Shown here one piece after another: positions 3,138 to 52,889 of a stretch of 64,000 bases of DNA (its first letter is position 1; each line of letters opens with the position of its first letter). The position numbers and the translations under genes were made by a program. The DNA lies in contig JANJGN010000034.1 in the NCBI GenBank assembly GCA_026770705.1, forward strand, positions 4,340,001 through 4,404,000, written 5' to 3'. This DNA comes from Isurus oxyrinchus (Eukaryota). Under the pieces are notes generated by a model, which saw only the letters and a list, made by a program, of their open reading frames with translations, ran no database searches and was not told the origin of the DNA.

Positions 3138-3173
3138 AATTGAAAATGCTGAGAAAGGTTTTGGGTGAATTAG
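3138..3173 (+). CDS. 36-nt phase 1-1 microexon (E)LKMLRKVLGEL of coiled-coil gene
   Basis: Acceptor tttttttctttttgcctttcag, donor AG|gtgggg, open frame; shares tttgcctttcagaatt with the exon at 47293. Confidence 0.8.
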
Positions 3174-6212: not shown

Positions 6213-6239
6213 AAGGAAAACTCCACCAACGTGAGAACA
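6213..6239 (+). CDS. 27-nt phase 1-1 microexon (E)GKLHQREN
   Basis: Acceptor tttgttcgtatttcag, donor CA|gtaagt, open frame, continues the heptad register of 3138-3173. Confidence 0.8.
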
Positions 6240-11620: not shown

Positions 11621-12487
11621 AAAAACTTTTAGGGCTTGGTTACTGATGAAAAAGTAGGCAAAAGGGAAAGAGTTTAATGATGTGCAATATTAAGGTAAAC
11701 TTGGCAAAGAACTCGTGTTTCACAGATATTTACAAGTCTGCTTTTGACGCCAACATCTAAAAATCCAAGCAAAAGTAGATTTGTCACTGAATACTAAAGC
11801 AGAAATATGACATAGTCGGCAGGAGACGGCAACATATTTGTTCAGGTAGGCAAGAATGATCATAATATAAACCAATTGAAAATGCCATTGCAGAGGGGCG
11901 CTTGGAAGGACAAAATCGGACCAATAATTTGAAGAAAAAGTTTTCTATTGGCTCAACTTGAAGCTTAACGAAATAACTGAATGAACAGAATGGCAAACAA
12001 CGATTTAGAGATTATTGTAAGGTGAACAGTTGAATGGTATGCAGGAGCATGCCGTAAAATATATTCCACTAACAGGAAATAAAGCTAACCAATCACAAGA
12101 ATCTATTGATGCATCAAATCAGAAGAGATGGTTAAATAGTAGGAAACAGGCATCGAAGGCATGATCGGAGAGACTATGCAGAGATTAGGTTAGAAACATG
12201 CGGACCTTAGCTGTATTGGTGCTCAGTGACTAACTTTCCTCCACAAATCTCCCAGTACCTCCTCCATTGTCTCTTCTCTTTTTTTCTAAAAACTTATCTC
12301 TTTTGATTCCAAGATCAAATATCTCCTTATTTTGCAGAATGCCAATGTCGGTTTCATCAGGCCATGGTGGCATTTGCATCGTTATTATAGCCGATTAAAG
12401 TAGCTGCATTGATGCTAGTTTTTATGCAGGTAATTAATTTTAAAGTGCGTAAAAAGTGCTTCAAAAATTGATTTTTTTTTTTTGCAG

Positions 12488-12514
12488 CCGGGAATGCATG
12501 CAATGCAACCTCAG
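12488..12514 (+). CDS. 27-nt microexon homolog, array unit 1 (x)GNACNATS; non-canonical GC donor, possibly pseudo
   Basis: Acceptor poly-T gcag, donor AG|gcaatc, open frame. Confidence 0.4.
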
Positions 12515-13788
12515 GCAATCGGCCGTTTAATCGTTTTTTCACAACTTTTTGCTGAAAACATGCCTGTAATTACAGAACAATGGACTGATAAAGGAAATGG
12601 CAAAATCGTACATGACTAGTACACAAGATAGCTTTTAATTAGATTAACCAAGCGTGCATACTTCATTGGATGTTTTGAACTTCCTTTTAAAAAAAAATGA
12701 CGTTTATTGCAGTTAGTTAATATCTTCAGTCTGTTTGAACCGATGTTTCAAATGCTGAGCTATAAAATTTGCTCTTAGCCAAATGCCAAACAAACAACAA
12801 GCTAACATCTGGAGTTAGATCAGATATGATCTCATTTGATGACAGAACATGATCGAAGGGAGAATCACCCACTATACTGTCAATACTATGCATCCCAGTC
12901 AACTGAAAAATAGATCTTCATGTTGGAATTTCACTAATAACAAATTATTACTATTATTTTAAAAGTTTATGGGCAATTTTATTATTTTTACTATTATTAT
13001 TAATAACATTAATAATTATAATAATAATCATCATCTGAATCATGACCATCATCAATATAATCACAATAATCATTACAATTTTAATATTACTTAGACTTAA
13101 TGGTTATTATTAGACAAATACTTTAAAGGACTCGATGAAAATTGGGGTATCTGGAGTGGTTTAAACATGTTCACCTTGGTTAATGGAATATGTTCGAAGG
13201 GGATATATTTCTAACTACTTTTCACATGCTCCTATTGATACTTGCATCCAGGTCCATAACTTAAGCCAAGTAGCGCCGTAATTCTCTGACTGATTGAAAA
13301 TCTGGGTGTACGTTAGCTGCATTGGTGCACAGCTTTCAAATTTCCCCCCTCAACAAGCAGGCCTCTGAACCACTGCTTCTTTATTTCAATCGATAAACCC
13401 ACCTGTTTACTCTTCTCAGCAATCAAATGAAGTAAATTAAAGGAAACGAGGGAAATGGTAAACAAAAAACAATCTGTTAACCCATCACTTTAGTGAAGCT
13501 TCTGATTACCAGACCAATTATCCCGTTACGTCGTGTGGTCAATATAGCTTTCATAAGGCTGCAATGATGTGTGTTTGGGTTTTTCACCTCATTGATTCCT
13601 TGCATGAGTTTTTTTTTTTATTGGTCAGGAACGTGAACTTCACTAGTTAAGCATTTATTGTCCATGCCAGATGCTTTTTGACACGGCACTAATGCCTTCT
13701 TGATCCGTTGCTCTCTACTGTCCATTGGTCAACAGGAAATATTTTTATTAGAAGAATAAATGCTTCAAATGTTTAACTTTGCCTGCAG

Positions 13789-13815
13789 TAGGGGCTACTC
13801 CTAAAACAACCTCAG
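13789..13815 (+). CDS. 27-nt microexon, array unit 2 (V)GATPKTTS
   Basis: Acceptor tttaactttgcctgcag, weak donor AG|gttcga, open frame. Confidence 0.5.
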
Positions 13816-15389
13816 GTTCGAATAAACATGTTTTGCAGTTATTATATTGACGAAAGTTTGTATTTTCAGTAGTGCATTGAAAATAACTATAGACTGATAC
13901 ACGATATGAGGAAGTAATACTGTTTTCGAGCAAACGGCTGCTTTCACTTAGAGCTATCCAGATTCAATTACGTCTTTGGATGTTGCGTAGAAACATAGAA
14001 CTGAGAGCACAAGTATGTCATGCCACCCGCCATGACTGATCCGTCTTTTAAATTGATAATGTTTAATATTTTTTCTCAAGGAGGTACTCGTGTTACCTTC
14101 CCATACCCCGAGACGACTTTGGAGTCCAGAGATCTATCTATCCATGTCTATATTTTTGAAATTGGTCTGTTTTTCACATCTGCACATATTATGAATTTAC
14201 TGTCGTGCATTGAAAAGAAGATAGACCGATATTGGGCAGGAGGAAGTCATGCTGATTTTACACATTCACTTTGAGCTATACAAACACATTTAGCCTTTGA
14301 GCGTTACTTTTAACAGAGTTAATAAGTGCATGAATAGGTATGTCGAAAGTTAGAGCCTACTCTGCCCTTAAAAGTGGTGATGTTTCATATTTTATGTCAA
14401 CGCCATATGCACACCCTCTCGAAATACCCCTAGATATTTAGAGGCTAGACATCTATGTATCAATTTCCATGTTGTGGTAATCTGGAACATCTCATTCGAT
14501 GGTGAACAAAATCGATAGTTCAAAATGATAACTTTTTTATGTTTTTATGGATAAATGTATTCAGGCCATTAACACATGCTAAATAGTGTTGTAGACATTA
14601 TGCTTCACTGGTTAACACCTCATTATACTGGAATAAAAGCAAGGGAGATAATAATAATAATTAATAATAATAACTGTAATAACAAAAATACCGAGATTTA
14701 GAGGTAGTTATTAGCGCATCCATTTAAATGACATGAGAAAAATGCTGGCATCTACAGTTTCATAACGCATAATTTCGATGGAAAATGGAACATGATCGAA
14801 GAGCTAAATTTTCAACTATGTTCCTGAAGGTATTTGCAACCAGCTCAATAATTTATACCAAGTAGAACAGTGGTCATATTACAGCTTGGTATTTTTTTCT
14901 TGTATCTGACCTGCATTGATGCTCAGCTTTTAAATTTCCTCCATGAACATTCTTTTCAAGCCCCTGTTTCTCTTTTTCTTCCTTTCAATTCATAATCTGT
15001 ACTCTTCAATGTTTTGAGCAACTAAAGAAGATAAGTTATATAAAACGAGGGATGAAGTAAGTAGCAGCCCCGAAACCCGCCTCTTCCAAATATTCCGATT
15101 AGCTGACCAGTTATTCCTTTATGTTATGCCATCCCAATAGTGGTTTCAAAATGCTGTGATTGCATGACTTTGGACGTTTCAATCCATTCTTCGTTTTATT
15201 TTTATGTTTTTTTTTCTTTTTTGTTCACGTCCCTAGGACAGCATTTATTGCCCATCATGATTTTTTTTTTTGACAAGTTGGAATTAAAGCTGCATTCGTG
15301 AATCGTTTCAATCCAATGATGGTTGTTGCATAGGCAATATATTTCGACTTTTTAAAACAAACTCTTCAAAAATGAATCTTTGTCTACAG

Positions 15390-15416
15390 CACGGAGCACA
15401 TGTAAAGCAGCCTCAG
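15390..15416 (+). CDS. 27-nt microexon, array unit 3 (A)RSTCKAAS
   Basis: Acceptor tctttgtctacag, donor AG|gtacta, open frame. Confidence 0.6.
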
Positions 15417-16837
15417 GTACTAGACATTTAATAACATGTTTTACACTTATTACACTGAAGAATGTTTGAATTTACTGCATGCATTCAAGAGGCGATGAAC
15501 TGATGCGGGGGAGGGGTGAAGTGATGCTGCTTTGATTAGAGTTTACCAAACAGATTTACCTCTTTGGGTGTAAAAAAGCAACAAATGAAAATATAAGGGC
15601 ACAAGTAGGTCATTTGACCCTTCGAGCCTGCTCCGCCCTTCAATGTGATCGTAGATGATATTTTACCTCAATGCCATTCTCCCGCTCTCTCTCCATGACT
15701 GTAGACGCATTTGCAAATAAGAAATCTATCTATCCATTTCCATGATTTCGAAATGGCTATTATTTGCACATCGTGCACATGTCCAATAGTCCTACATCTG
15801 TTAAAAAAATGCATTATTTAACACGGAGGTTTATAACCTTTGATAGTTTGGTGCTTCTAAGTTCACACATAAAATGTTGGCATCTATAATCACATCAGCC
15901 ATGATCTCATTGGATGGCGAAACGTAATCGAGATGATAACATTCTGACTGTTTTTGCAATTTTCCTTTGGATAAATAATTTCAGGCAAATCACATATACC
16001 AAATTGAACCTTGGATAATATAACTCACTGTTAATATTTCATTATGTGGAATTAATGGCAGCAACAACTTCATTAATACTAAAATAATAATGTTATAATA
16101 AAAAAGTGTAAATAATAATGGTAGCAATAATAATAATAGTACGAGATTTAAATGATATTATTAGCCTAATACTTCAAATGATACGAATCAAGTGCTGGTC
16201 TCAGAAAGTTCATTAGCATTGAATTCGTTGACTAACGGAACTTGCTCGAGGAGATACATTTCCAATTAGTGCCCGTATGCTCCTATGGATATTTGTGTCC
16301 AGCTCTTCAGCTTATATCAAGTAGACTCGCAGATCTATTAGAGATTGTGACATCTATTTTATCTTACCTTCATTGCTGCTGAGAATTCACATGTCCTCCC
16401 TTAAAATCTTAGCCTCTGATGCACTGTCTCTTCCTTTCAATCCGAATACCCACCTGTTTACTCTTTTGAGAAACAACATATGCTAAAGATTCACGAGGGA
16501 CAAATAAGGAACAGCCCTTTAGCCGACACCTTCACTGAAGCTTCCGATTACCAGGTCAGTTTTCTCATTGTCTTGTGAAACCCAATATCAGTTTTAATAG
16601 CCTGTCATGATATGTTTTTGGGCGTTTCACACAATCATTCGCTGCATTTTTTTTTTACCTTTTTTGGTCACGGAACTTGAGGGTCGGTGGGCCAGCATTT
16701 ATTTTCCATCCCATATTGTTATTGAATATTTGGTGATGAGTTGTCTTCTTTAAATACTGTTGCCCAATGTTTATAGTTGTATAGGCAACTTATTTAAAAG
16801 AAAAATAAATGCTTGGAAAAAATGTTTTTGTCTGCAG

Positions 16838-16864
16838 CAGGGGAAACACGTAAAGCAACCACAG
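16838..16864 (+). CDS. 27-nt microexon, array unit 4 (A)GETRKATT
   Basis: Acceptor tgtttttgtctgcag (tandem CAGCAG), donor AG|gtacca, open frame. Confidence 0.6.
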
Positions 16865-17559
16865 GTACCAGATCTTTAAATCATGCTTTACACTTGTTAT
16901 TCTAAAAAAAAATGCTTGGATTTGCAGCGGTGCATTGGATGGACAATAGAATGGCATAGGACTCGAGGAAGTGGTGCTGGTTAGCTGCATGAGGCTGCTT
17001 TCACGTAGAGCTATTAAAATAGGTTTACCTATTCGGCTGTTACATAGAAGCATAGAAAATTGACGCACTAGTCGGTCATTCGACCATTCGGGCCTGCTCC
17101 ATCATTCAATATGATCATGATTAATACTTTATCTCAACCCTTATTCCCGCTGTCTCCTCATAAAACTTGGTGCCTTTAAAGATCAGAAAAATATTTATTA
17201 ATTTCTATGTTTTCGACTTATGTCTGTTATTGACATTGTTCACTGCCTAATCGGCTCTGTACTATCAAACTGGAATGATTGAAACACTGATTTAATGATT
17301 TGAGTTGGCACAAAGCATTTGAGAATTTGAAAAATTGCTGGAGTTACACAAGACCGGATTTCTTGGATGGCAGAACAAAATCGAGAGAAGAAAATTCTAA
17401 CCGGTTTTGCTATGTCCCCTTAGGTAACTGCATTCATGACATTAACAAATATCAAGCTTGTAGTGTCGAACAATCTTCAGTACCTTCAGAATGACATTTC
17501 TTCCAACATAATGTAGAAACTGGGTTTACCACTAATCAGAAACTGGACGAACCTTATAG

Positions 17560-18180
17560 TAAAGTGTCTAGAAGGACTGTTCACAGGCCTGGAACTCTGC
17601 GACGAGTAACTCACACCCTGACTCCCCAACACTTCTAGTGTATGTACAAGGCATAAGTCAAGATTGTGATATAATATTCTCAAGTGCACAGTGTGAGAGC
17701 AGTTCCAACAACTGTCTGCACAATGCACGGCAAAGCAGACTGCTTACGTTTGCACCACATCATAAATTCACTTCCCCCATCCCCCACCCAACCAAAGCGC
17801 AGCAGCAGTATGCAAATCAAGAAGTGCACTGCAGAATCTCAACAAGTCTCCTTAGAAAGCGCCTTGCAAAACCGGGCTGCTCCTATCTAAAAGAGAAAGG
17901 GCAAGAAACACATGGGAAGGCCAGCACTTTCAGTCACTCCCACAACCCCCTGCGCCTCTTCCCCTCATCTGAATCACCATCCTGGAATGGAAGCGTATCG
18001 TAGTTCCTTCGTCACGATCCTATAAGCCTTTCCCAAAATGTACTGCACCTATGCAAAGACACCAAACAGGCTGCATTGGGACAAGAAGGCACCTCACCAC
18101 AACTTTCTCAATTGCAGTTAGGGATGGGCAATAAATATTGGCCTAGCCAACGATGCTCACATGCCATGAATGAATAAAAC
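17560..18180 (+). mobile_element. L2/jockey-group LINE 3' end inserted in the tandem array
   Basis: LRRVTHTLTPQ..MYKA*V motif and tail ttagggatgggcaataaatattggcctagcc..gaatgaataaaa; same family as 22120-22830 and 63020-64000. Confidence 0.75.
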
Positions 18181-18995
18181 AAATCATAAAGTGATCTATA
18201 AAATGAGTGGAAATAGGGGATCAGTTTTCAAAAATGTATCTTCCTCCTTAGGTGGAGCAGTGCATAAACGGAAGCCAGGTAATGGAACATTTGACCATTA
18301 ATTTCTACAGATTTCGTATAGCTGCGTTATGTTTGTATTTGCAGTCGTGCACAGTTAGGCCGATGGACTAATGCATTGAAACAAAAAAACAATACAGTAT
18401 ATACTGCATGAAGCTGTTTTTTTATGCAGAACTATTCAAACAAACTAACTTATGTTTTAGCTTTTGGATCTCCTAAATTTTGCTCATTGGATAGCTACCG
18501 TATATTCTTCCGATCATGACAGCTGAATATTTAATAACGAAATTAAATGCTATGACGGGTCAAATTACTTAGAAAATATGAACAAAATTCTGGTATCAGA
18601 ATGTAAATCAGCCATGATCCCATTGAATTGTGGAACATGATCGAGGAAATTTTAACTACTGTTAATACGGATATATGCACACTGATCTTCAATTTATACA
18701 ACATAAATCAATGTCTCTATTAATTTATCGGAGCTGGTTAGGTGCGCAGAGTTTAACTTACCTCCTTTAAAGTGCGAGTGAATCCTTTTAACCCAGAAAC
18801 AGCCCTCATTTTTGAACCTTCAGGTTACCAGGCCAATTATTCGCTTATGCTTTCCGGTGACAAGACCGGTTATAAAATAACATGGTGAGTTATGTTTGGC
18901 ATTATAACCAGTTGAAATGGCTGCATAAGTGCGGTTGAAAAACAAATAAATTTGAAATAAAAAAAAATGTTTTAATAACATATCTATGCTTGCAG

Positions 18996-19022
18996 CAGAG
19001 AAAGTTTGGAAAGCGACGACAG
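18996..19022 (+). CDS. 27-nt microexon, array unit 5 (A)EKVWKATT
   Basis: Acceptor tctatgcttgcag (tandem CAGCAG), donor AG|gtaacg, open frame. Confidence 0.65.
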
Positions 19023-19956
19023 GTAACGGACCACTTAATACTTTTCTTTCTTTTGAGAATTTGCTTCCAATTGCCGTCGTGCCGCGGTGGATCGATAGGT
19101 GGATACAGTACAGCAGGAAGTCACGCTGTTTTATTTTCCCTCCCTTGCAAGGCAGCTTTTAGATAGGACTTTCCAAGCAAAAGGAATTCAATTTATGTTT
19201 CCCAATCCCTCATTTGTCTCGCCAACAATTATCCGATAGTCTTCCAATTATTAAAATTCAATATTTTAGACTAGGATTAATAAGGCGTTGATTAGCCGAA
19301 TTCCTTAAAAACGCCAGAAATTCTTGGTATTTAGTATTGGATCAGTCATGATCTAATCGGATGGCATAATATGTCTGGGGGGATAAACCTCTAACTCCTG
19401 TTGTGATGTTCGTATAAATTTATTCATCCACGTAATTAGAGCCATTGTTCGATAATAGTTCATTTCAAAGTAACTCCTTATTTTGGACTAATACTTATAA
19501 TGATGGTAATGATAATAATAGATAAATTCCCCATTTAGCCCTGCTCAATTCGCTTGCTGTGCTAAGTATATGCTAAAGGCTGAAGGAAACGTACATGCTT
19601 AAGCCTGAAATGGAATACAACGCCATGGTGGATGGAGTGCTGTGGACTCTCCTTAGCACATTTATATTAATACGTAGGGTCATAATATGCATTGCCATCA
19701 GAATGAACAAAGGAGATAATACCATTGAAGTGTAGGTTATTCAACACTTCTGGCGTGTTTCCTCATTTACTTGATTAGAATTGACTGACATGGACCAACA
19801 GCTCTTCTACACAATTCAGACTGCTGTCTTACAAATAACATGGCTGCTACATATTTTTGAGAATTAAATCCGTCCTCCACTATCTTTTATGGAATGAAGC
19901 AATTAATGGGTTTTTCCTAATTTTGAGCTTTTGAAACCATGATCCGATCATGCCGC

Positions 19957-20648: not shown

Positions 20649-20675
20649 AGCTTGATCGACTCTTCGAAGATCTTG
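20649..20675 (+). CDS. 27-nt microexon (E)LDRLFEDL
   Basis: Long T-rich acceptor ttttatttatttttgtag, donor TG|gtaagc, open, amphipathic; resembles 38734-38760. Confidence 0.85.
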
Positions 20676-23818: not shown

Positions 23819-23845
23819 CAAAATCACAGTTGGATAAAGATCAAG
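23819..23845 (+). CDS. 27-nt microexon (A)KSQLDKDQ
   Basis: Acceptor tatacttgcag with upstream cttaac branch-like motif, consensus donor AG|gtaagt, open. Confidence 0.8.
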
Positions 23846-24629
23846 GTAAGTTTCTCAAATGTGAACATATAAAATTACTGAGGTGCGGTTGAACACTATT
23901 CTATTGCGTTTGGTGGCATTCTGGAAATGATATCGGAGTGATATTGACCAACAACTACCACACAAAGGGCTGGAAATCAAATTAACACTTAATCCGGTCA
24001 TTCCAATATTTGGTTATTTTGATGTAAATGAAGCTTACATCTTGGGTGCAGGGGATTTACGGCGCATAATAAGGTACTTTGCCATTCAGCCTGTGTTTCA
24101 TTTCAGCCAGTTTAGTTTGGATTTTAAAGAACGTTTGAATGACTGGATTCTTAAATTCTTCGTGCGTCTGTATTTCAAGCGACATTTTTTGCTGATATTT
24201 TTTACACTGTGTCACGTTTTAGGCAATTTATGGTCACCTGTGCCTGAACCATGCTAGAGCCCCTTGTCAATTATGACGTTATTCATTCCTCGGATAATCA
24301 TCTGTGGAATACACTTCTCCACCTTAACTTCATATGTTGAATGCTGTGCGGAACTGTTCTCCAAACAGCAAATGAATGAAATTAATGGGTCAGAGCTTCG
24401 AAGCGTGGCATCACAGTTGGATTGCCAATTCAGCCCTCATACGTAAGCAGCAGATTTGTTGCCCAACCTCCTGTCTCGTGCCTGGTAAGAAATGTACAGT
24501 AGACCCGTTCCTCAGGCAATTCTGGACAGTGCAGCAGAGTCGGGAGCATAGGAAAGTACTCCATAATTTTAGCTCATTAATGTCCCTAATATAAGTCAAT
24601 TTTCTTCATGGCTCAGCAAAGTTGAGAAG

Positions 24630-25520
24630 ACAGGGGTAATTTAACTCTATAAAGTGGTTGGTAAGGGCGCGGAAATGCTTGGTCGGGGTGGAAAGGATGG
24701 ATCAGGGTAGGATGGATGGTGATGCTAGGATCGGTCAGGAGGGGAGTTTGGGTGGATTGGTAGAATGGTTTTGTGAGTGGTGTTTATTTGGAGTTGTGTA
24801 CGGACGTTGCCTGTGATAGTCGGGATGGGGTAGTCATTATGGAATTGTCAAGTGTGGGCGATTTGCGATATTGTTTACTGGTCATGAGGTGGGGAATGTA
24901 GTCAGGGTGTTTGAGGGGAGCCAGTGAGTTGGGGATACTCGATCGTCGCCGATTAGTCCTGGTCTGTGGGCCTAGACAGAGTTCTGGTGGGTAGTCATGA
25001 GATGGTGTTGTTGTCATGATGTGGGTTTATTGGGGTGGGGGATGGCTGATTGGAGACTCTAGTCGAGGGTTATCAGAGTGTGGAGTAGTCAGAATTTGGG
25101 GTTGAAGCGGTGGGCCAGACTGTCGTCAATGAGCTGGGGGATAGCCCAGCCTCCAGAGGGAGCCTGGGTGCTCCGTGGTGTAGTTAACCAGGAGGACGAT
25201 AGGGTTCTATTCCTTCTAACATATATAGTAACTGTTCGGCTAAGACTTGGAAACATCCAGAGTCTCAGGCTTGAATCTGAGTATAGGATGCTTCCAAGTG
25301 GAGAGTGATTGCTCGTTGTTACTTTGAACTTCCTGGCTAATTGCCGTGAAGTTCTTGTGTGGGTACTTCTGAGGGGTTGCCTCAGCGCACTTTATGGGTT
25401 TCCTTGCTGGAAAATGCCTTAAGTCTTCTATGGTACTGCCCCATAACATTTTGAGAATTATATGTTTCTTTAGGCGAGGGTTTAAGCAGTTCAGCACAAT
25501 GGTAAAGATTTGATGTCAGT
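24630..25520. repeat. G-skewed degenerate interspersed repeat, unclassified
   Basis: Strong G/T skew at 24660-25180 that contrasts with the flanks; no recognisable protein motif. Confidence 0.35.
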
Positions 25521-26284
25521 TAGAACCTTAGGCATGATCTATTGGAATTGGTGAATTTGTTCATGATGTTTAATAGCCTATTTTTCTTCATGTGTATCCA
25601 TGCAACCAAACTGAAAGCGGCATTTACAAAGAGAATAAGCAACGGAAACAAAGACGCGAATTTAAGGCTTTGTCAATGTTATGAGGAAGAGGATACCCGA
25701 GCTGATTCATTTTGCAAATGAGAAAAAAAAACAGAACGGGATAATGGGAGGCATGGTGGTGAAGTGATGCGGTGTAGGGCGGGTTGGAATGGGTTTTTTT
25801 AAAGCACATGTTTAAACACATTAACAACACCAAAGTACTTAAGAGGGTGGAAACAAATCCAAAACACTCTCAGTTTCAGAACTCGGGACATCTCGGTATA
25901 TTTGAGCTCGAAGTTGTAATGGTTGCTTTTTAAGCTTGGAAATTGGCCAGTGAATTAACGCACAAATAAACGAAGAAAATATAGTTCAGAAATGAGCCCA
26001 GCAAACGGCTTCAAGACTAAATGCAGCAGCACACTTGGCGATGTACTCGGATGTGAGGTTTTGCTTCCAAAGCTCCCGGCTCTTGATCCCACAATATTAC
26101 AACACACACGTGATATTATCCAGAAATAATTCGTACGAGACACTGTAAGGATTGATGTATGTATATTATGGCAATAAGTAAACAATTGCCAAAATAAAAA
26201 AGGAATTACGCATGCAAGCAGGGATCTAAAAGCAAAGGAAACAAAAAAATGCCCCAATTTTGTCAATGGGATTTTTACAAACAG

Positions 26285-26311
26285 CTTATGAAGTCTCAAC
26301 TTACAGAGACG
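26285..26311 (+). CDS. 27-nt microexon (A)YEVSTYRD
   Basis: Acceptor atttttacaaacag, donor CG|gtgaga, open. Confidence 0.6.
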
Positions 26312-27322
26312 GTGAGAGTATGGGAGTGCAATGGATCCTGAATAATAACGAATGAGCGAAATATTTTTTCATGTCAAATAAACAAGATTATGATATTAAG
26401 GGCGTCCATATAGAACATCAAACTAATAATAATCGAAAAAAATGTATTTTTTTCTTGTTGGAGTCACAAAGCGAAATTGTTTGATTCCTGCACATACTGC
26501 CAAACTCTAGTAACAGTGGAAAGCTGGAGATTTTAACTTTGTTCTTGGAAAATAAAATGCGGTTATGAATGTATTTAATGTATGTATGGAAATTCACAAA
26601 TAGTTTCGATGGAGGGAACAATACTTAATTAATGATGGTGACAGAAATGCCTCAAATAGAAGGGATTATTTAAGGTTTTTGGCAAACGAACTGAAGACAT
26701 GGATATGTATTGTTCTTTAAGCAGCAAATTGTCATTCTTTAGGTACCACTATCTGAACTGGAGCTAGATTATAATTAATCTCTTAAATTAAAATCATATA
26801 TATATTTAAAAGGGGGCTAGAAGGAATACGAAGTTTGAGCAGCGTAACGTGGTTTATAAGGATGCTTTGTCGAACATGTGGTGTATGACAGTTTTTCAGT
26901 TGCACGTTCGATAATTCCATTAAGAATTAAGAAGATAAGCTACTTGTAAACAACTGGGTTATTACATTCAGTTGAAACAAAACATACTTCTGCTCGGTTG
27001 TACTTTGTGGGCGTTTCCGTTCAATTATAATACCCGTTAACAGGCAAATTACCACATAGTATTGCAGGAAGAATGCTCTTTTATGAATTATAGTGCCGAT
27101 GAACTGTAGTTTTCGTGTTGGAGGATTGCTGCATATCATAGGATTTGTTACATGCTAATAAATACCCCCTAAGGAGGTCAAGGTGAGGTGAAGCCATACT
27201 GGTTATATCACAGAGTGATTGGTAGAGCACATAGTTTTGATGAAGAACAAATGTTTAAATGAATCCTAATTATGTGAATGGATTCGATTTCCATTACTCA
27301 ATATTTCCATTCTGCTGTTCAG

Positions 27323-27358
27323 AAATACGAAAATTGAAAGTTGCACTCAACGATGCAG
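27323..27358 (+). CDS. 36-nt microexon (E)IRKLKVALNDA
   Basis: Acceptor tttccattctgctgttcag, donor AG|gtgaga, open; clear paralog of 42733-42768. Confidence 0.88.
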
Positions 27359-28195
27359 GTGAGAAAGCAGTACAGCATTGATTGAGGTCGGTGGTGGTCA
27401 GAAATTAAAGTGTGCAGGATGCAATTGAATTTGGATCGTATTCTGTATTCAATACGAAATTTGTCTCAGTTGGCAAATTTTGTACCATTGCAAAAACTAC
27501 AGATTTGACATATCCTTTGTTTCTCATTCCAAATGTATTCAGTAGAGATGACAATGGGAGGGATATAAAATGTGTTGCTCTTGCATGATAACACATTTTT
27601 TCCTCATCCTTCAAATTGAAAGTTCTTGTGCAGAGACAACACATCTAAAATCAAGTTTGCATATCTACTGAAATTTTAAAGAACCACGTATAATTCACAG
27701 AACAGAACCAAGACCACTGACGGTGTTGCTTTCAAATATCGAAATGCTTCCTCCTATCCGACTTCACCTCATGGTATTAGATTATGCTCCCTTGACGGAA
27801 TTCACTCTTGTGTTTATCGATTATTCCCATACATGCCGCTGTGCTACTTCAGTCAATTAAGTGCCGTGCTAGGGAAGCCCATGATATCAGGCTCCCCTGG
27901 AATCAAGATTTTTTTTCCTAAGATACCAAAACATGCACGACAGCTCAGTTACTTGAAATATCATTGCAATCCTTAGAGAATGTCAACATTCATGACAAGG
28001 CCACGTCGTCCATATTTGTGATTGACGCCTAACAAAAGGGCGCACTGCCAATTGAACCATTGCACGGCAAAATAATTATATAATTCCAGTGAAACACCGT
28101 TCCCTTTTAAACTACCTTGGACAATTTTGTCCGATAGCACATGAACATTTTTTTTTTGGCTCCACCTGAAGAAGAAACTCCTCGAATTGTCTCAG

Positions 28196-28231
28196 GAAAG
28201 CACCATCGCATGAAGGAAAAATCCAAAGTAG
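28196..28231 (+). CDS. 36-nt microexon candidate (G)KHHRMKEKSKV
   Basis: Acceptor ctcgaattgtctcag, donor AG|gtattg, open. An alternative in-frame AAG acceptor gives a 60-nt form from 28172. Fits the heptad pattern poorly. Confidence 0.5.
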
Positions 28232-29016
28232 GTATTGTGTCAGCACCTTTATAATGGCAATGCTTTGTTCGAACCGGATTCTTTTCGAAAATGAAGACTC
28301 ACACAAAGCAAGTAGGAGATGCGAATTCTGGGTAACTATTCAAAGGTAAGTAAATGTATGTTTGATATATTCCAAATAATTGCATGATTATAAGTACATC
28401 CCGAAGGCCAGCAGTGCGTCTCCTACATCGCAGAGAAAAGAAACTCATTATACTCTTTATTCATGGCAATGTGTACATATCCTTCAGGGTTTAAGCTTTA
28501 CAATATTATTGCAGATTTTTCACAAAATCCACTGTGTTGATCAATGTCCGCACATAATGTTTTCGGCCTTAAGTAATTTGCATTGGATTCGAACGCATAC
28601 CACCTAATTCACAGCACGAATAAATACCCCAAGTAAGAATTAATTCATATCAGATTGTTTCAGCAGAAACATATTTCCAAGCCGTGGTTAGGTGAATGCA
28701 AACCGTGATAAGATATATTCTGTGCAAACATTTTCTGCAATAGCCGCTTCATGGCTACCATGTTGTAAAGGATGGCCTATATTGCTGGAAAAATCTTTGA
28801 TCGCTCGCAATCTTAACTGTACATTATGACCTCCATGACTAGAAATACGATAGCGACGCTCTCCATTTGGTGGACACTCGAGAAAAATTGGATTATCCGC
28901 TTTACAACAAATACAAACAGGGGAAATATTGTATGACATTTAAACTTATGAATAATTCGTTCGGGTATATGCAGCGCAATTCTTTACTTTCAACAACAGA
29001 AGCATCGGTAAACTAA

Positions 29017-29046
29017 ACACACACACATACACACACAGACACACAG
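29017..29046. repeat. (CA)n imperfect microsatellite
   Basis: acacacacacacatacacacacagacacacag. Confidence 0.85.
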
Positions 29047-29337
29047 ATATTTACGGTGCTACACAAAGGAACTGCATGATAAATGAAAATGTGTCCATTA
29101 GGGACCTGTTTATGATCATGCAATCATCGAATAAATGAGTGGGATAGGCATATTTCATGTTAACTTCCAGGAACCGTTATAGAATAATCTCTGCAAATTG
29201 AATCATTTGTTCATTTAAAATGAAAAATTTCGCAGCTTTGTTGGAAGACATATTGGCTGGAATCCCCTTCGGTTGTGACTTGTTATTCTGTGATTTTAAT
29301 GAAGCTGTAAATCTCATTCATTTCTAATCTGCTATAG

Positions 29338-29364
29338 AAGAAAAATTGCGCACATGCCAGAAGG
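29338..29364 (+). CDS. 27-nt microexon (E)EKLRTCQK
   Basis: Acceptor ttcatttctaatctgctatag, donor GG|gtaagc, open. Confidence 0.85.
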
Positions 29365-29882
29365 GTAAGCAAAAACAATATTTGCAATATGCCTTTCAAA
29401 AAGCTTGATGTGTCATTCAATATAGCATAATAACCTGTGGAATAGGAGCAGTATTTTGCCATAAGGTTTACAAAAAATATTCCATTACTCAAAGATTAAG
29501 GCTATCTGATCATCAGTTCAATACGGCTTTCATGTATATTTTGCTTTGCTCAAACTTCACAGCGTTGTGAAATAAATAATTACACATTTTTAACCTATCA
29601 GCGAGAGAAATAAAGTTCTCATCATCGCGGGTTTAAACAGGCTACAGCTTATGCTGAAAATATGCCCCCTTCATTTAGATTTCCTCACCGTCCGGAGAAT
29701 CCTTTCAAAATCGACAATGTAAACCCCCCTCAGAACCTGATATGCTTAAACAAACACAATTTGTAGCCTTTACGGGAATTCATACGTTTTGAGATTTAAG
29801 ATGCATTTAGCACTATGTGTGATCAATATTTATGTTTTAACCCGATTATCTAGTATATATTCTATTTCCCTGTTGCAATTAG

Positions 29883-29909
29883 AGCTGGAAAACTGCAGGA
29901 AAAGTGACG
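29883..29909 (+). CDS. 27-nt microexon (E)LENCRKSD
   Basis: Acceptor tatttccctgttgcaattag, donor CG|gtgcgt, open. Confidence 0.8.
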
Positions 29910-30539
29910 GTGCGTAGCGAGGGATATGTTGATCTCTGAGAACACAGGTTTCTGTAGTACAACTGCATCCTTTGCTCGTGCAGCTTTGCAAACGTAATTA
30001 TTAATAAGATTAAATGCGAATTTTGACTTAGAAAAACCGCTTTCCCTTGAGCGTCAGCCAAAAGTAACATGTCATAGCACCGTTTTCTTATGGCCCTGTT
30101 CATTACATAGATGTATAGGAATTGAATGCTTTCAAATGCACAACTTATCTTTTCGCAGACATATAGAGGCACTTAAACTGGCATATTATGAGGACAATTT
30201 TTGATTTCAGTTAGCAAGGAGAAAAGGGAAAGTAATTGTTTTTCATTAAGTGGAAGGTAGCCTCTTTAAAATTTCAGCATGCGTTGCTAACCATAATTTC
30301 CCTGTGAAAGGTAGAACTGAGCCACCTTTGAAATAAAACAATCTGCAGCCTGTGTCAATTTCGTACACACACAGTGTTGTTAACGACAAGCACAACTACT
30401 TTGACCCGCAATAACAGTCAGGTGGCATGGCTCCAAATCCGGGTTTTGAGTTAAATGAGAGAGAAGTAGGAAATGCACGCATGCCTCCAGATGTTCTACT
30501 TTTATTCACCTTGGTCAAAGTGTGAATTTCAGCAAGCTT

Positions 30540-31010
30540 TCAAGGCATTACCGAATGAAGCCCAGCGGGTCAATGCCCTGCATGATATCGATTTTGAACA
30601 CTGCTGCCATGTTCGCCAGTGGTGGAAAATGGGAAAATTCCAGGTGTTGGACAGACTGCGGGTAGATTTTACTCCGTGGCCCTTCAAAGGATCAAACTCT
30701 TTCAGTGCTGTTGAAACTAATCTCATCAAGGCAAATGGCGCATTTTTAATCCTGACCTCAGAGTTAATGATGGTGCTCATTTTTTATTTTCCGTACTTAG
30801 GTAATATGCCATTCGCCACACAATTTAGAACGTCTACTAGGTTATCTATTTTCACAAAATATTCGTAAGGTTGCTCCAATTAAATTTCTGGTCCATGGTA
30901 ACCTGTCGGATCGAGAGGATTTCAGCTCTGGTAATGCTGAAAAATGTTTCAGGAAGTTTATTGTCTTCTCCCTTAACGTACAAGGCCATTGCATGGCACT
31001 TAATTAGTAT
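30540..31010 (-). mobile_element. Highly decayed L2/jockey-group LINE fragment
   Basis: Patchy similarity to 22440-22830 (gccactg..cagtggtgg, ttctggtc.atggtaacc blocks). Confidence 0.4.
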
Positions 31011-32913
31011 GAACATTTCGTAACAATGACATACCTAACATAATTGAATAATGTGATGTATTTTGTAGACGAAATGTATAGCAACTGGAGCAAGAGATAT
31101 CTCAATGCGTAATTAACGTCAATTTTATTCAAAAACAGAGAAGAGTCTTTTTAAGCAGCAGCGCGTCGCACAACGGGCGTTAGAAGGATGGAAAGTTCCC
31201 CAACCCATCGCCTTTAAAGCACAAAACCATTGTAAAGAACGTTCAATAAATTAACAGTATTTCAAACAAAAAAACAGCAACTTTGGAAAGAAAATCTTGG
31301 AAGGCTTGTTAGCACAAAGACTGATTTTGTTTCTCACTGAAAATATGAATTGAAAGGAAATGATTAAGAATAATGCAACCCACAAGAAATGGATGCCAGA
31401 TTAAATTTTAAAAAGGCAATCAGCAAATGGGAGTCTTCAGAGAAAAACATAATAATTTTCCATTTTCATAACATGGAAAGGACACAAAATGCCAACAGCC
31501 GAAAGGGCGCTAACATAAACCTATGTGAAGGATTTTTGTATATTAATACAATGGCGAACGCCTTAGAATTCCCAGCACAATTCATTAAGCCTATGAGAAG
31601 ATAGACTTTTTTTTAATGATGCAATGGCCAGAACGTATCAATGCGTTCTGAATTCAGCAATGTGCTTTAAACTGTGAGAGTGCAAACGTCACCGAATATT
31701 TTTAATAGAGGGATGGGAAATGTAATAGTCCACCTCTCAGTTTAGCATCAATAATGCAAAGAAAATCGGATGACTCAGGCAAATATCCGTTGAGAAAAAA
31801 TCTTTTATATTATGGAATGATTGAAAGAACAGTTACTTCATTGAACAGAGATCGCAATTGTGGTGATTGGTTTCAAATGGTGCAATATCTGCAATGAGCT
31901 ATGAATATATTTTATGGATTTTTACTGCAAGAGGACAATTGTTAAAAGTGGTGGTGTATTCAGCACCGTAAAGGGCAGGATGAAATTGTGCCGCCAAGTT
32001 ATTGGAGGACCTGTTGTTAGATAGATATTGACGGTTCACAGACTTCAATTGCATGTTACACTGTACGTCTGTTTACATTATAAATCAATATTATGCCCTG
32101 CTTAATTTTGCTGAGCATTGCATATCCACCTCCCATTACTTTTTGCTTCTATCAGGCCAGCGCATACAAGAAGCAATAGCAGCTAAACAGAGAAATAAAC
32201 AAAATAATCCTTAATAACACTTTCATTTTCACATCACATGTATCGCATCACAAATCATAATTGATAGCAAAATTTATGCTCTACTGAAATGTGTCAATGT
32301 TTATACTCTACATTTTATTCATCCTACCATTCTTCACCTAATAATCACATTGTGACATTTTATTCATTGCTCCGCCACGAACGCTGAAATGCACTGAACT
32401 TATTCAGATCAATCAACACTACTCCATGCTCAGTTCACAAAAAGATGAAATTGCCTCAATCTCGCAAATGTAAGAGATCGAGTTTATGCTTGTGAATGTG
32501 CGCATTTGCGTGTGCGTGTATATGTGTGTATGGGAGAGAGAGTATGTGTGTGTTTATGCGTGTTTGTTTGCATGTGCGTGTTATGCGAGCATATTTTTCT
32601 TATTTCCTTTTCGCGAGATGTAGGCCATTTTGAAATGATTAGTCATTATGCCCGTACTTGTTAGTGCAAAGGGTCTGGTAAGGGCCCTTTGTGAACCGCT
32701 GCAGTCCATCTGTTTTCCGTAAACCCAAAACGCATTTATTTTTGTTTAATGTTTATATTGTTTGCATGATTTTTTTTTCATGTATTACTTTTTTTCATCA
32801 GAAGTAAATGATAGGAGGATACTTATGAACCCCAAAACAGCCAGTGCACAAAAAGACAAATGCATATGAATAAATAAATTAATAGTAAACATGGTTGATC
32901 TGCCTTTTTTCAG

Positions 32914-32949
32914 AAAAGACGAGGCTCAGAACAGTTGGAAAGCATAAAG
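32914..32949 (+). CDS. 36-nt microexon (E)KTRLRTVGKHK
   Basis: Acceptor tctgccttttttcag, donor AG|gtgagg, open. Confidence 0.8.
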
Positions 32950-33244
32950 GTGAGGAAAAAAAAACGTAATGATAAAAACATCAAAAAAGATGTTCAAATT
33001 TATTGAGGCTAGATTTTGCACTCACTACCATTATTTCTGACACGTTTTTTTTTAATTCAAATTGTGTCCAGTTCTCCGCCAGGTATCATTTTCTACAATA
33101 AGGGAGCTTGAGACGTTTCTACTACGGTGATTGCTGCTTCATGAAGTTCGGGGATTAAAGAAGCTAGAAGAACTCTCAGAGCTAGCGAAATTCATGTTGA
33201 ACGACCAGGGATTTCAATACCACCATCCCAAAGATGCCTGAAAT

Positions 33245-35040
33245 CATTACATAGCAACATACGGAATAGAAGCAGGGACAATTCATTTGTCCTTTCGAAC
33301 ACGCGTGGCCATTCAACAAGAGTATCACGGAACTGATTGTGGCATTAACTCCATATTCCATTTACCCCTATAATCTTTACCTCCCCTGTCACACAACAAC
33401 CTACCCAGTACCGCCTTTAAACATTGATAGACCCTGCCTTCACCAATCTCTCGGGAAGAGAACTCCAAAGACTAATAACCCTCAGAGAGAAAACAAAAAG
33501 TTTTCATCCCCTACTTAAATGGACCAATCCACTGTCCTCTGGTTCCAGTGTCTCGTACAAGTGAACATATCCTTTCAGCCTCCATATTTTCAAAACCCGT
33601 GAGGATAATTGATTTTTCAATATGATCACCTTTCAATCTTGTCAATTTGAATTGAAGTATATCAAGCCTGCCCAGGCCTTTCTCATAAGCTAAATCATCA
33701 CTGATGGTTGCGGCACTCCTCTTGTCACATTTTGCCAATCCCAAAAACTTCTATCTATCCACAACCTCTTCATTTTCTTGGATAGCCAATCCGCTACCCA
33801 TGCCACTATGTTAAATCCTACACATGAGCATCGTGAATTTTGATATCAAATACCATCTAGAAATCCAATGGCAGCACATCCACAGCTTCATTTGTATTCA
33901 CGTTGCCCGAGTCGTTCTCAAAGAACTTCAATACATTAGTTAAAAAATATTTTGCTTGCATAAATTTGCGTTGATTCCATTTGATTGTAAGGAGAATTGC
34001 TAAGTGCTCCAACACAACTTCCTTAAAAATAGTTTCCAGCAATTGCCCTACAACAGGCATTAAGCTAACTCCGCTCTAGTTTCCTGATTTCCCCTACTTG
34101 GTTTGTCGAAAAGAATGATTTACTGTATATATATATATTTTTCAAACCTGGTGGAACATTTTCAGAACCTAGGGAAATTTTGAAATTTCCATCAAATGTA
34201 TGTATTATCTCAGAAGTTATTTATTTAAGACCGTGGTATGAAATGAAATTTATCCGAGTATGCGGATTTCTCACCTTTTAGGTCAAATATATTTTCTCAG
34301 TAATGTTTCCTTGGTGATTGTAAATGTTTTGACTTCCATCCCATTCACCTCCTGATTGGAAGGCAGCTCTGGGATAATATTTCTTTCAGGTAGTGTGACG
34401 GCAAACGCAAAATATCTAGCCAGTGCGTCTGCAGTTTCATGACTTTCTTTTATTAATTCCTCACCCTCACTATGTATCGGACCACTGTTGCCTTACTTAG
34501 ATTTTTCTGAAATTTTTAATGACTGTAAAAGTTCTTATAATCTGCTTTTATATTTCTAGTTAGATTTTGCTGTTATTCTGATGTCTCCCTCCTTAATACA
34601 TTGTAGTATTTTTTTCTGTACTTTTTATTCGGCTGAATCTTTTTGAGTGTCACTCATCTTTGCGGAATTTGAAACCTTTTGTCTCTTTCTTCGATTTGAT
34701 AATTCATTCCATTTGATACTTTATTTAACTTTTTTTCTTAGCCGTGGGTGGTATGGACTTCTCTTAGATCATTCATTTCTCATGGAAACGTAATTGTACT
34801 AAGGATTCTGATTTGGATCCTGAAATAGCTGCCGCTATCTGTATACTGATTTATCTCTTGACCTAATTAATCAGCTCGCTGTAGCCAGCTGTGTCTTCGT
34901 GCTCTCATTATTTCCCTTATTTACTCTACAAATCTTAAAACCATTCCTGTCTTTCTCCAAATAAACATTTAATTCAATCGTATTATGATCAAAGTCATCA
35001 AGGGGCGCAATCAAAATGAAGTCATCAATTAATTCCTGCA
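33245..35040 (-). mobile_element. Degenerate CR1 LINE (ORF2 and 3' end)
   Basis: Minus-strand peptides VVGQLLETIFKEVVLEHL, FLTNVLKFFE..AVDVLPLDF, LAYEKGLGRLDIL..RLKGDHIE; CR1-type 3' tail near 33250-33330. Confidence 0.85.
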
Positions 35041-35734
35041 TAATTTAATTCATGTACACGACTGACAGGAAGGCATTAGCACTGTTCGATTATGTTGCTT
35101 CAGCTGTTAGAAGTCACTCAGTGTCACAATTCATATCCCTGATAATCCACCTCTCCACACAAGAAGCCGAACCCTGGGAATGCATCAGCTCGTTTCTGTT
35201 TAATTTATGGTATTTACTTGTGGAAACAAGAAACACACCTGTTTAACGAATTAGGGAGATTTCAAACTTGTCTCTGGAGATTAAAATCTCTTGTATGTTA
35301 CCCACTTTTGTCACGTGACTTAGCAGCAGCTATGTTTGGAAGAGGAATTTCCAACAAACAACAAGGTTTTACTGTTGAGATCAACTGGTCATGACGCAAC
35401 GGCCATAAGTAATTAAAATTTTTTTAATGATATTTGTAGAAGACAACCTCTCTACCCCTTGCACGAGGGGGTAAAATTCACTCCGATTAAGTTATCCGCT
35501 ATAACTCGGTACCAACAATAGTTTGGTACTCAGTAAGTAATGCGCTGACATACCAGGTTATTTTATGAGTTCCAATCAGCAATACTCTTACTCAGAACTG
35601 ACAAAACGCTATGCTGAAGCAGGCCATATTTTTTTTTTCATGAGGCATGATGTTCAATTTTGAACGTGTTAACCATGCACACATTCTAAAATCACAAAAT
35701 CCATATTTAAGTATGGAAGTGATTATTTTCGCCT

Positions 35735-36060
35735 GATATTCATTCAAGACATGTGGCGGTCGTTAACAAGGTAAGCATCAGCTGCCCAAATATAATTGTC
35801 CTTGAACTGAGAGTCACGCTCAGCCATTTGAGAATCAATCAAATTGCATTGGGTCTGGAGAAGCATGCAAGTCAGCCCCGGTAAAGGGGACAGCTTTCCT
35901 TTGCAGGAGAACATTACTGCAGTAGGCCGGTTTTAATGGTTTTTATCAAAGGTGTACTGCAGCTAATATAATGAATCTAACTTTCTGTTCAGATCTTAAT
36001 TATGTTAAAATTTCCTGCCAGGAACATAACTTAGATAATCTGAAATAATGATGCAATGAC
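35735..36060 (-). mobile_element. Decayed SINE
   Basis: Begins with the reverse complement of the LINE-shared tail (gcccaaatataattgtccttgaactgag); related to 45940-46260. Confidence 0.5.
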
Positions 36061-36636
36061 ACGAACAGTGGATTAACCATAAGCAGCTGTTTTACACAAG
36101 GTTCTGCATGAAATGGAAGGATAATTGTGGTTTGCAACGTTCACCTTTTTCACGTACTTTTTTATACTTGGATCATTCCTGCCCCCAAACTATATTATTT
36201 CAATTTAATTTGTTTTGCTTCAAATATCTTAACTTTTCAGATCAATAGATAAGCCGTTGTGTGAATATGTAATAACAGCTCCATATTTTTCTTCTGAGTG
36301 CAATCTATTTGGAAAACATACTATTTGACTGATGTATAGTTTTAGACGAATCACTTATATTTCACTTTAAATCATTACTAATAGATACTGATTGGGCGAC
36401 AAAAATCGAAGGTGTGTAAAATAGAAATACTCCCTGAACTTTTTTAAAACCATAACTTCATTAATTACCCACTTGTGTGATTCAGTGACTGAGGTTTGAT
36501 AACCGGTGCATCCCATCAGGTGTCAACCAAATCATGTCCATTTCCGCTCCCAGAGAGCTGCTTTGGAGAAATGATAAAATATGACAGAGCAACCAGATAG
36601 TGCTCTTTACAGCTTATTTTGTTGCTAAATGTTCAA

Positions 36637-36766
36637 TTAGAGAAAATATGATTCAAAACAAAAATCCACCCTACAATTTTGATTTAATTAATTGTCTCTG
36701 TTATTAGAGACAATATGATTCAAAACCAAAATCGAACCTATAATTTTGATTTAATTAATTGTCTCA
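36637..36766. repeat. About 67-bp imperfect tandem duplication
   Basis: aatatgattcaaaac.aaaatc...aattttgatttaattaattgtctc occurs twice. Confidence 0.8.
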
Positions 36767-38733
36767 GTAATGTCTGCAGATTATCTCTCCAACCAATGTT
36801 GGACATTTCACATTACCCTGATGTTCAACAAAGCATATGCTTGCCTTAGACGACTACATTACTCAACCATCATCCAAAACCTTTCACCTGTGGTTGTTCC
36901 TCTGAATAAATTTTATTCTCCATACCCAGTCATGGAACTGTGCACAATTTTGAAAAAAAATATTATATTAAGGATATCAATGCTTTGAGAAAAAACAGTG
37001 TGCTTTGAACAAAACCATTTAAGAGAGAGCGGATTCAATTATCTGGAGATATTAAAGAAACCACGATTCTTCCCTTAATAGAAGTGCGGTTTTATGTTGA
37101 CCACAATAGGGTAGTAAAAATATTGTTTTGTAATGGAGTAAATCAGGGCATTTTATTTGTTCTGAGGAAAGGATCAATAACTAAGAAATGCATATTTAAG
37201 ATGAGTGTAAAGATTATGCAATAAAGAAAAGAAATACAATCCAAAATGCTAACTACTCTGACCTCGAATGCATTTCTTAAAAAGACATCCAAAGTATACT
37301 TCAACAAGCTATTAAATACATTATTGAAATGAAAAGTATTACAGGGTTATCCAGAAACTTTACGGTAATGGCACTGATTAGATTGATCTTCCAAAGAGCT
37401 CATAAGCTCGTAATGGGCTGCATGTCTCTTACTTGGTCTAACATTTAATAACATCCAGAATTTATTAAACTATACACTCGTATCACCTGATTTCCTGAAC
37501 GAGTATTAAGCATAAGTAAGTACCGAGCAGCTCAACCGAGATTACTAGTTGTAGGAAAGCTGCTATTAAGAATTTCCACCTGTCAACATCTGACTCATGG
37601 CCGAGAAGAAATTATAGCAGTTCTTTTTTTATAATTCCTCCATTGATGTGGTTTCCAAAGTTTAATCTTCCTCAGACTTTGACGTCATGGTACAACTGAT
37701 GTTATTGCTTTGCCCGTTTAATTTCTAAAGATTCTATTAGCTAATGCTTGTAAGCTCCTGATATGTTTTCTCCCTGACCTAATTCCAACACCACTTCATC
37801 ATGGAGGCTGCACCTACATCAGCACCTTTGCCAGCTGCCAAGTCCACCATTTCTTCAATCTTCCAGCTGATTTTACCAATGCAGATGTTGTTTTATATGT
37901 AATGGAAGCCAGAAGCGGCTGCACAAAATGTTCCCTTACCCTTTGAGAAATTTGATGTCACACCATCTGCTGCCTGGGCCTTAAACAGCAGCTGGTTCCA
38001 ATCATCATTACAATTCCACTAATTGATTGCGGTTCCAACCCACATGAGTGCATGAACTTTAAAAGACAATTTTGCAAAAAAAAATGCCGACACAGTCTTT
38101 CCCATCACCTTTTCTGCAGCCTCCTCCCTCTGGTAAGCTGTGCAGCTGTGACAAGAAATGCGAAATTCCCACGCCATCTCGACACAGTTGGGCCCATTAA
38201 ATTCCTCTGCATTTACTGGCTATTAAGAAAACAAAGAAAATTTAAATCACGAGCACACTTAATGGGAAATGAAAGTAAAAGAGGGTAAGTTGCATGTAAC
38301 GTCCTATGAAATTTTTACTCCCGCAATTTCCTTTCTTGTACCTCTGAATATATTCAATTCGCCTTTAGGGGCTGCATTTCATGAAGCCAGGTATCAGAGC
38401 TCTGAAATAACATACCTCAAAACACAAACACTCGGTGAACCACTCCAACCTCTAACCCACGCCCACCTACCCATTCCCCGCACTCTTTCCTCCATTAAAG
38501 TTTGATCAATTTCAGCTGGGTCATTCTTTGATAATCTATCGCAATATATGACGATGACACTTGGTAAAATTTTTTGTCCAAAAACAAACCTGACCACGTC
38601 ACGTTAGGTATCACTAATGCGTGGTGTATTATTTACACTCCAGTACAATCGATAGAGAAAACTTTATTTGAACACAATTGAGTTTTTCTTCCATGGAAAT
38701 AACGTTACAGACTGACGTATGACCACATTTCAG

Positions 38734-38760
38734 AGCTGGAACGAATTTTGGAAAAGATGG
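38734..38760 (+). CDS. 27-nt microexon (E)LERILEKM
   Basis: Acceptor ccacatttcag with ctgac branch motif about 20 nt upstream, donor GG|gtaagc, open; resembles 20649-20675. Confidence 0.85.
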
Positions 38761-40239: not shown

Positions 40240-40545
40240 TAAAGAAACAAACAGATGGATTGATAAATAAATAATGAGATAAATAAATGTACGATTCAAC
40301 AAATAAATAAATAACTAGATAGAAAAAAAAATAAATATATGAATAAATGTGTAACCAATTAAAAGCAGTGTAAACATATAAATATAGGTAGTGGGATAGG
40401 CAGATGGATACATACATATTTAGTTGGCTGTATAGATAGATGGATAGATGTATAGGTATAGATAGAGAAATAGAGGAATAGATACAAAGAAAGAGAGAAA
40501 GGTGGATTGAAAAATAGATAGATAGATCGATCGAAAGATACACTG
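40240..40545. repeat. Degenerate (ATAA/GATA)n simple repeat
   Basis: Runs of ataaataa and gatagataga; explains low-complexity ORF 40190-40564. Confidence 0.8.
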
Positions 40546-41204: not shown

Positions 41205-41290
41205 TTAATATTATTATTATTGTTATTATTATTATTATTAGCAGTATTATTAATAGTAATATTATTATTATTTGTTTTATATATATATGA
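41205..41290. repeat. (ATT)n-rich simple repeat
   Basis: Directly visible. Confidence 0.8.
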
Positions 41291-42732: not shown

Positions 42733-42768
42733 AAATTCGCAAGTTGAGAAAAGCCCTCGGGGACAATG
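42733..42768 (+). CDS. 36-nt microexon (E)IRKLRKALGDN
   Basis: Acceptor ttcctcttttgttttcctcaacag, donor TG|gtgaga, open. Confidence 0.9.
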
Positions 42769-43867: not shown

Positions 43868-43894
43868 CTAAACAGCTTCGTGAATGTATGCAAG
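43868..43894 (+). CDS. 27-nt microexon (A)KQLRECMQ
   Basis: Acceptor ctttctcttgacaacag, donor AG|gtaatg, open. Confidence 0.85.
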
Positions 43895-52865: not shown

Positions 52866-52889
52866 AACCAAGCACCTAGGTGCCATTGC

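Follow-up and report, generated by a model that had tools for sequence, protein, structure and literature searches.

The window (the whole stretch of Isurus oxyrinchus DNA analysed here, 64,000 nucleotides in length) contains an array of tandemly duplicated intron-plus-exon units on the forward strand (12204..19433), in which six copies of a 27-nt exon have retained their splice signals, length and reading frame beyond neutral expectation. The non-chance signal resides in the splice signals. This six-copy tandem array is real and old, and its linker micro-exons are probably functional. We consider it reasonably probable that these exons are spliced, that they form a flexible hinge, and that they have been kept for their inclusion, their frame and their low hydrophobicity.

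Structure of the tandem array

The exons of the array are spaced 744-1601 nt apart and the units are about 51-65% identical. An earlier note on this DNA had described five tandem homologous intron-plus-exon units; these lie where it had placed them and are homologous, but the array contains six exon copies, one of which had been overlooked. Copy 1 (12488..12514, phase 1-1) combines a GC donor (gcaatc) with the strongest acceptor of the array. It is followed by copy 2 (13789..13815; donor gttcga, CAG/TAG tandem acceptor), copy 3 (15390..15416; donor gtacta), copy 4 (16838..16864; donor gtacca, CAG/CAG tandem acceptor), the overlooked copy 5 (18252..18278; acceptor TAG, donor gtaatg) and copy 6 (18996..19022; donor gtaacg, CAG/CAG tandem acceptor), which is the fifth exon of the earlier note. 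All six are 27 nt long and lie on the forward strand. The five exons originally described each consist of CAG, 27 nt and GY with an open phase-1 frame, and their peptides and donors had been given correctly.

The heavy divergence with indels ascribed to the units was borne out by pairwise comparisons of copies 2, 3 and 4, which gave 62.6-63.6% identity over 1178-1418 columns, with 32-39 gap openings; the unit-length diagonals that the earlier note had suggested looking for are therefore present among these copies. The alignment diagonals of copies 1 and 6 were shorter. Three exon-context pair scores (43.5, 44.0 and 48.5) were on a par with the top score among 300 random windows (48), so that the case for including copies 1 and 6 depends mainly on copies 3 and 4 and on the profile. 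Copy 5 was recovered with a profile of the other five copies (nhmmer, E=1.8e-10; unit profile, E=1.9e-14); it is identical to the other copies at 8-13 of 27 nt, and its acceptor and donor scored 5.5 and 4.0, respectively. The same profile search recovered a half unit (14192..14480, forward strand) consisting of the downstream flank only, without an exon, which may have arisen by partial duplication or through the loss of the exon from a copy. The 16 other candidate exons had a DNA context unlike that of the array units (scores of 18-44; control maximum 48).

The units carry fragments of high-copy repeats. A high-copy interspersed repeat on the reverse strand (17522..18176) splits the flank upstream of copy 5; it has an inverted match to 22116-22762 and a summed contig depth of more than 100,000 in the DNA runs. 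We take this repeat to be LINE-type. An Rfam search of positions 10000-22000 gave no matches. The contigs of the source run, which is not independent of the assembly, agreed with it across the array with few differences, and on this agreement the array is not an assembly artefact.

The predicted host gene and the array peptides

The window is made up of intron-rich vertebrate DNA with a GC content of 34-44%. The list of six-frame ORFs includes no evident long coding one, and the repeats presumably resemble those of cartilaginous fishes. The array is predicted to sit inside a plus-strand coiled-coil gene composed of 27- and 36-nt phase-1 micro-exons. When splice sites were scanned for with a generic matrix, AG..GT pairs with a length of 27 or 36 nt accounted for 17 of the 75 on the plus strand versus one of the 54 on the minus strand (Fisher P=5e-4). 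Fifteen such pairs lie beyond the array and translate into open phase-1 peptides; these have a hydrophobic period of 3.6 residues, equally strong in 2 of 1000 shuffles, and in four 36+27 pairs the hydrophobic residues fall mainly at positions 2, 5, 9, 12, 16 and 19 of 21. In all eight host exon pairs compared, pS exceeded pN. The sequence predictions upstream of the array include a 36-nt rod exon of heptad type P (3138..3173) and a 27-nt rod exon of type Q (6213..6239), the last confident one before the array. The first predicted rod exon after it is 27 nt long (20649..20675), and further candidate rod micro-exons, all plus-strand, open, in phase 1 and 27 or 36 nt in length, start at 23819, 27323, 29338, 32914, 38734, 41297, 42733, 43868, 47293, 51017, 53678 and 56760 (within 23819..56795). 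Candidate exons 7963, 29883 and 20814 were too weak and were excluded from the host counts, and 53678 was counted as a host exon. One contig of a second species (organism B) lacks the stretch 20580-20828, which includes the first rod exon after the array; in this contig, from a run of which half was read, position 20579 is joined to 20829 via 10 letters. A protein search with the exon alignment, using a profile of 11 columns that is too short to give the search much power, returned 211 candidates, none with E≤10.

The composition of the array peptides differs from that of the host peptides. Leu, Ile and Met account for none of the 48 array residues versus 35 of the 138 host-exon residues (P=9e-6). 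When Phe is added, the count remains 0 of 48, with 5.7 expected (P=0.006; one of seven groupings tried). Ser and Thr are found at 14 of 48 array positions versus 11 of 138 host positions, and Ala, Gly, Ser, Thr and Pro together at 28 of 48 versus 21 of 138. The earlier description of a small, polar, Ser/Thr-rich and non-heptad insert in the rod agrees with these counts, which support the view that the array would encode such an insert within the predicted coiled-coil rod.

Splice frame, splice signals and readings of the array

The exon interiors have similar pN (0.44) and pS (0.43) values. Among the five copies of the earlier note, 13-20 of 27 nt are identical. The identity of the interiors fits the neutral simulation (P=0.72 for nucleotides, P=0.31 for amino acids). 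Gap-free flank windows numbered 159 of 967, and 36 of these 159 were as conserved as the exon. The comparison of exons with flanks proposed in the earlier note thus gave a divided answer: the interiors are not better preserved, whereas the splice frame is preserved beyond chance. Neutral simulations were based on the flank tree, with two indel rates, a majority root and a single substitution/indel model. A copy counted as intact if it had kept AG, GY, the length of 27 nt and an open frame; this held for all six copies in 4 of 286,764 and 2 of 256,917 simulations, and for at least five of the six in 107 of 286,764 and 35 of 256,917; the corresponding counts for five copies intact were 28 of 286,764 and 6 of 256,917. 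Splice dinucleotides alone were kept in six copies in 183 of 286,764 neutral runs, and the length of 27 nt alone was kept in five copies in 6-16% of the simulations. Chance AG-27/36-GY sites occur 3-9 times per unit, and the five-copy family-wise figure is nevertheless about 1e-3. Copy 5, which was located by its flanks, retains AG, 27 nt, GT and an open frame (neutral chance of 12-15%). Of 29 majority AG sites, four have AG in all five alignment rows, and the linker exon accounts for two of these four; the sole gap-free AG..GY pair (12-60 nt, all five rows, either strand) is the linker exon.

The exon-end CAG is present in all six copies (P=0.002). The +5G is missing from five of the six array donors and present in 11 of the 15 host donors. 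On a simple matrix, the donors of copies 1-6 scored 0.8, 0.6, 0.7, 0.9, 4.0 and 4.2, respectively, and those of the host exons 2.5-8.0; the GC donor of copy 1 is non-optimal. A compensation pattern between exon-end and intronic donor positions is described for human splice sites in the available text of PMC8283771. The “poor” donors of the array are probably better than they look, because the invariant CAG would compensate for the missing +5G. No upstream AG was found within 25 nt of the acceptor in any of the six copies, and a branch-point-like motif is missing in two. The GC content is 52% in the exons versus 37% in the region, and the introns between copies are 717-1574 nt long. Four contig sets, two labelled as RNA and two from DNA, gave no exon-exon joints on 10500-30000 among the matches listed, in which repeats dominated. 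No RNA run was among the matches listed in a search of the runs with 31-letter words, which cannot fit inside 27-nt exons and are therefore uninformative as to expression. An inverted repeat pair surrounds copy 4 (16647-16750 with 18083-18190; duplex z=-7.7), with weaker equivalents at copies 2 and 3. This pair could promote skipping, but the repeat is a very common one and its position is perhaps incidental.

We propose that a unit of intron and exon bearing a 27-nt phase-1 cassette underwent ancient tandem duplication inside a micro-exon rod gene. All or most of the six exons would be spliced in, the 5' copies with weak donors probably variably, to give a product of up to 54 residues, rich in Ala, Gly, Ser, Thr, Pro and Lys and non-heptad, which would act as a flexible hinge or spacer between rod segments. 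Selection would act on inclusion, frame and non-hydrophobicity, leaving the exact residues free. Each exon is in phase 1-1 with G or A as its last letter, so that skipping any combination of copies would neither shift the frame nor create a stop at a junction. Variable inclusion is plausible given the weak 5' donors, the GC donor of copy 1 and the tandem acceptors of copies 2, 4 and 6. A more speculative extension, in which we place limited confidence, is that the hinge is tunable by splicing from 0 to 54 residues, in steps of nine residues with extra one-residue shifts at the tandem acceptors of copies 2, 4 and 6; the combinatorial inclusion of micro-exons might then set the reach or flexibility of a giant, unannotated coiled-coil protein of the shark that may serve as an immune-type sensor.

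It is unlikely, in our assessment, that the copies are decaying passengers, once included, now unneeded or leakily spliced, and surviving since their inclusion is harmless. The neutral-like interiors and the weak donors of copies 1-4 are consistent with such a history, as is the half unit without an exon, which would allow for past losses, and the organism B contig lacking 20580-20828 hints at loose constraint on single exons. However, neutral runs preserve the splice dinucleotides of all six copies in no more than 183 of 286,764 cases, the copies still end in CAG and still avoid hydrophobic residues, and the onset of decay would have to be recent relative to a tree of 1.96 substitutions/site. 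The progressive decay that the earlier note had offered as one of two options for the donors is likewise disfavoured, by six copies intact over 1.96 substitutions/site and by the pairing of weak donors with an invariant CAG.

We regard as improbable a second alternative, in which the six exons are mutually exclusive cassettes, one 9-residue exon per mRNA, providing variants at a single hinge position. The tandem arrangement of homologous exons, their equal length and the gradation in their donor strength would suit this model, and the accessible text of PMC9741552 describes tandem duplicated exon substitutions as generally ancient. The non-heptad 27-nt exon 53678 might be the unexpanded equivalent, its peptide being similar to those of the array (score of 7.5, found for 0.2% of random 8-mers and 0.8% of self-shuffles), but the ordinary heptad exon 47293 scored 8.2 (18 peptides scored), so this link is weak. 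Introns of 717-1574 nt imply no steric exclusion, joint inclusion would stay in frame and hence would face no NMD filter, and the regions searched for shared docking sites yielded none above the control (the best common duplex reached -19.1 kcal/mol, that of the control -19.3 kcal/mol). Furthermore, in the human cases key residues are maintained and changes are conservative, again as far as the accessible text of PMC9741552 goes, whereas pN equals pS in the array.

There is very little likelihood that the copies are not exons at all, with a chance AG-27-GT motif lying in an old duplicated intronic segment of repeat fragments. Fragments of high-copy repeats do occur within the units, the interiors are no more conserved than the flanks, and no RNA junction was found among the matches listed, but the neutral simulations, the tests of CAG and composition and the unique all-row AG..GY pair are all against chance, the copies share their length and phase with the exons of the gene around them, and the sixth copy, which was held out, carries the same signals. 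Spliced linker exons forming a hinge thus remain our preferred reading.

Age of the duplications and comparison with known systems

Pairwise flank distances among the copies ranged from 0.47 to 0.78 substitutions/site, and the branches of the copy tree add up to 1.96. The distance between the source organism (organism A) and organism B was 0.057 (over the 8 contig pieces listed). The copy-to-copy flank distance is therefore 8-14 times the distance between the two organisms, and the duplications are 8-14 times older than the A-B split. Organism B contigs (run X6) bridge copies 4, 5 and 6, with a copy 4 piece corresponding to 16689-17091. The organism B contig over copy 1 stops 16 nt beyond the donor, and contig cover in this organism has holes at copies 2 and 3 and is uninformative as to their presence. 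The copy tree shows no simple match to array order (bootstrap values of 65-96). An absolute date was rejected: a per-generation rate of 7e-10 (PMC10587355, available text) leads to more than 3e8 generations, which gives no sensible date, and the age is used here as a relative one only. Given these flank distances, the presence of at least copies 4-6 in organism B and the lack of a simple array order in the tree, it is highly unlikely that the array represents, as the earlier note had it, exon birth caught in the act, a young duplication heading to exonisation or loss, despite the increase in donor strength towards the 3' end, and the array is no demonstration of ongoing exon birth.

The array would instead provide a natural example of selection for inclusion, length and low hydrophobicity without sequence constraint (pN equals pS). 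Such exons escape annotation based on protein conservation and RNA indexes of 31-mers. The array also locates a probable hinge within a large rod gene of cartilaginous fishes that is composed of micro-exons and apparently lacks annotation; if splice-tunable, this hinge would be a vertebrate counterpart of micro-exon-gene diversification.

The heptad tails of the chicken BG genes, members of the butyrophilin family, are encoded by strings of micro-exons, and their length is altered by alternative splicing (available text of PMC4046983 and PMC5938342). The BG exons are 21 (sometimes 24) nt long and encode one heptad each, their number varying from 13 to 36 between genes (PMC4046983, same text). 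As in BG, the coiled coil of the shark host gene is predicted to be built from many tiny symmetric exons. Unlike those of BG, the host exons are 27 and 36 nt long, such that 36+27 makes three heptads, and are separated by kilobase introns, and the array, unlike the BG heptad tails, is non-heptad. No Ig-V or transmembrane exon was found within the window; one larger candidate was not domain-like by eye. Butyrophilins with variable heptad numbers are reported from jawed vertebrates, including cartilaginous fishes, in the accessible part of PMC12841164. Among the mainly open-access papers listed in a search of the literature, none dealt with a shark rod gene of 27/36-nt micro-exons or with a hinge array.

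Human symmetric exons encoding disordered modules arise via internal tandem duplication (PMC3632108, in the text available). The array resembles these exons, as far as they are described there, in its phase symmetry, its tandem origin, its low-complexity polar product and its compatibility with alternative splicing, but differs from them in being a micro-exon expanded six-fold within a coiled coil that is itself encoded by micro-exons. It also resembles tandem duplicated exon substitution, as presented in the accessible text of PMC9741552, in consisting of ancient, equal-length, tandem homologous exons, but the regions of it that were scanned showed no docking site above the control and it lacks conservative amino-acid constraint. 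The array is thus a variation on the known duplication of symmetric exons in tandem, and the host gene is the more unusual object.

Host exons surrounding the array

The predicted coiled-coil rod gene around the array contains a block of five predicted host exons (27, 27, 36, 27 and 36 nt) that is present twice, at 20649-32949 and 38734-47328. The peptides of the two blocks are homologous, and a self-blast of the window detected no intron similarity between them. Judging from the sequence, we regard the two blocks (20649-47328) as a higher-order repeat reflecting a much older block duplication. The host exon counts leave out three weak 27/36-nt candidates with an open phase-1 frame (7963-7998, 20814-20840 and 29883-29909). 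A lone 27-nt exon candidate at 53678-53704 encodes a non-heptad peptide weakly resembling those of the array, with an offset of one codon, and is possibly an unexpanded hinge exon.

In a second species (organism B; contigs from run X6, half of which was covered), a single contig, record 28, joins position 20579 to 20829 with just 10 letters between them, such that 20580-20828 is absent. If this single-contig join holds, the 27-nt rod exon at 20649-20675, after the array, would be missing from this species, with the frame kept.

Acceptors and inverted repeats of the probable linker exons

NAGNAG tandem acceptors are present at array exon copies 2 (13789), 4 (16838) and 6 (18996), and would permit 24-nt in-frame variants; for copy 6, the analysis listed the 24-nt form at 18999. 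Copy 4 is flanked by repeat fragments (16647-16750 and 18083-18190) inverted relative to each other (65% over 108 nt), with a predicted RNA duplex of -63.5 kcal/mol (z=-7.7). Weaker versions were found for copies 2 and 3 (z=-2.3 and -3.7, respectively). Such pairing could loop out exons, but the inverted pair around copy 4 may be incidental.

Repeats within the units and the window

Every array unit carries, in its downstream part, sequence similar to repeat fragments scattered through other parts of the window (52405-52562 and 53402-53555), so a SINE/LINE tail was already part of the unit before its duplication. Two further repeats, at 1391-2748 (arranged as an inverted pair) and 9788-10336, are related (83-86% identical) and are presumably Penelope-like.
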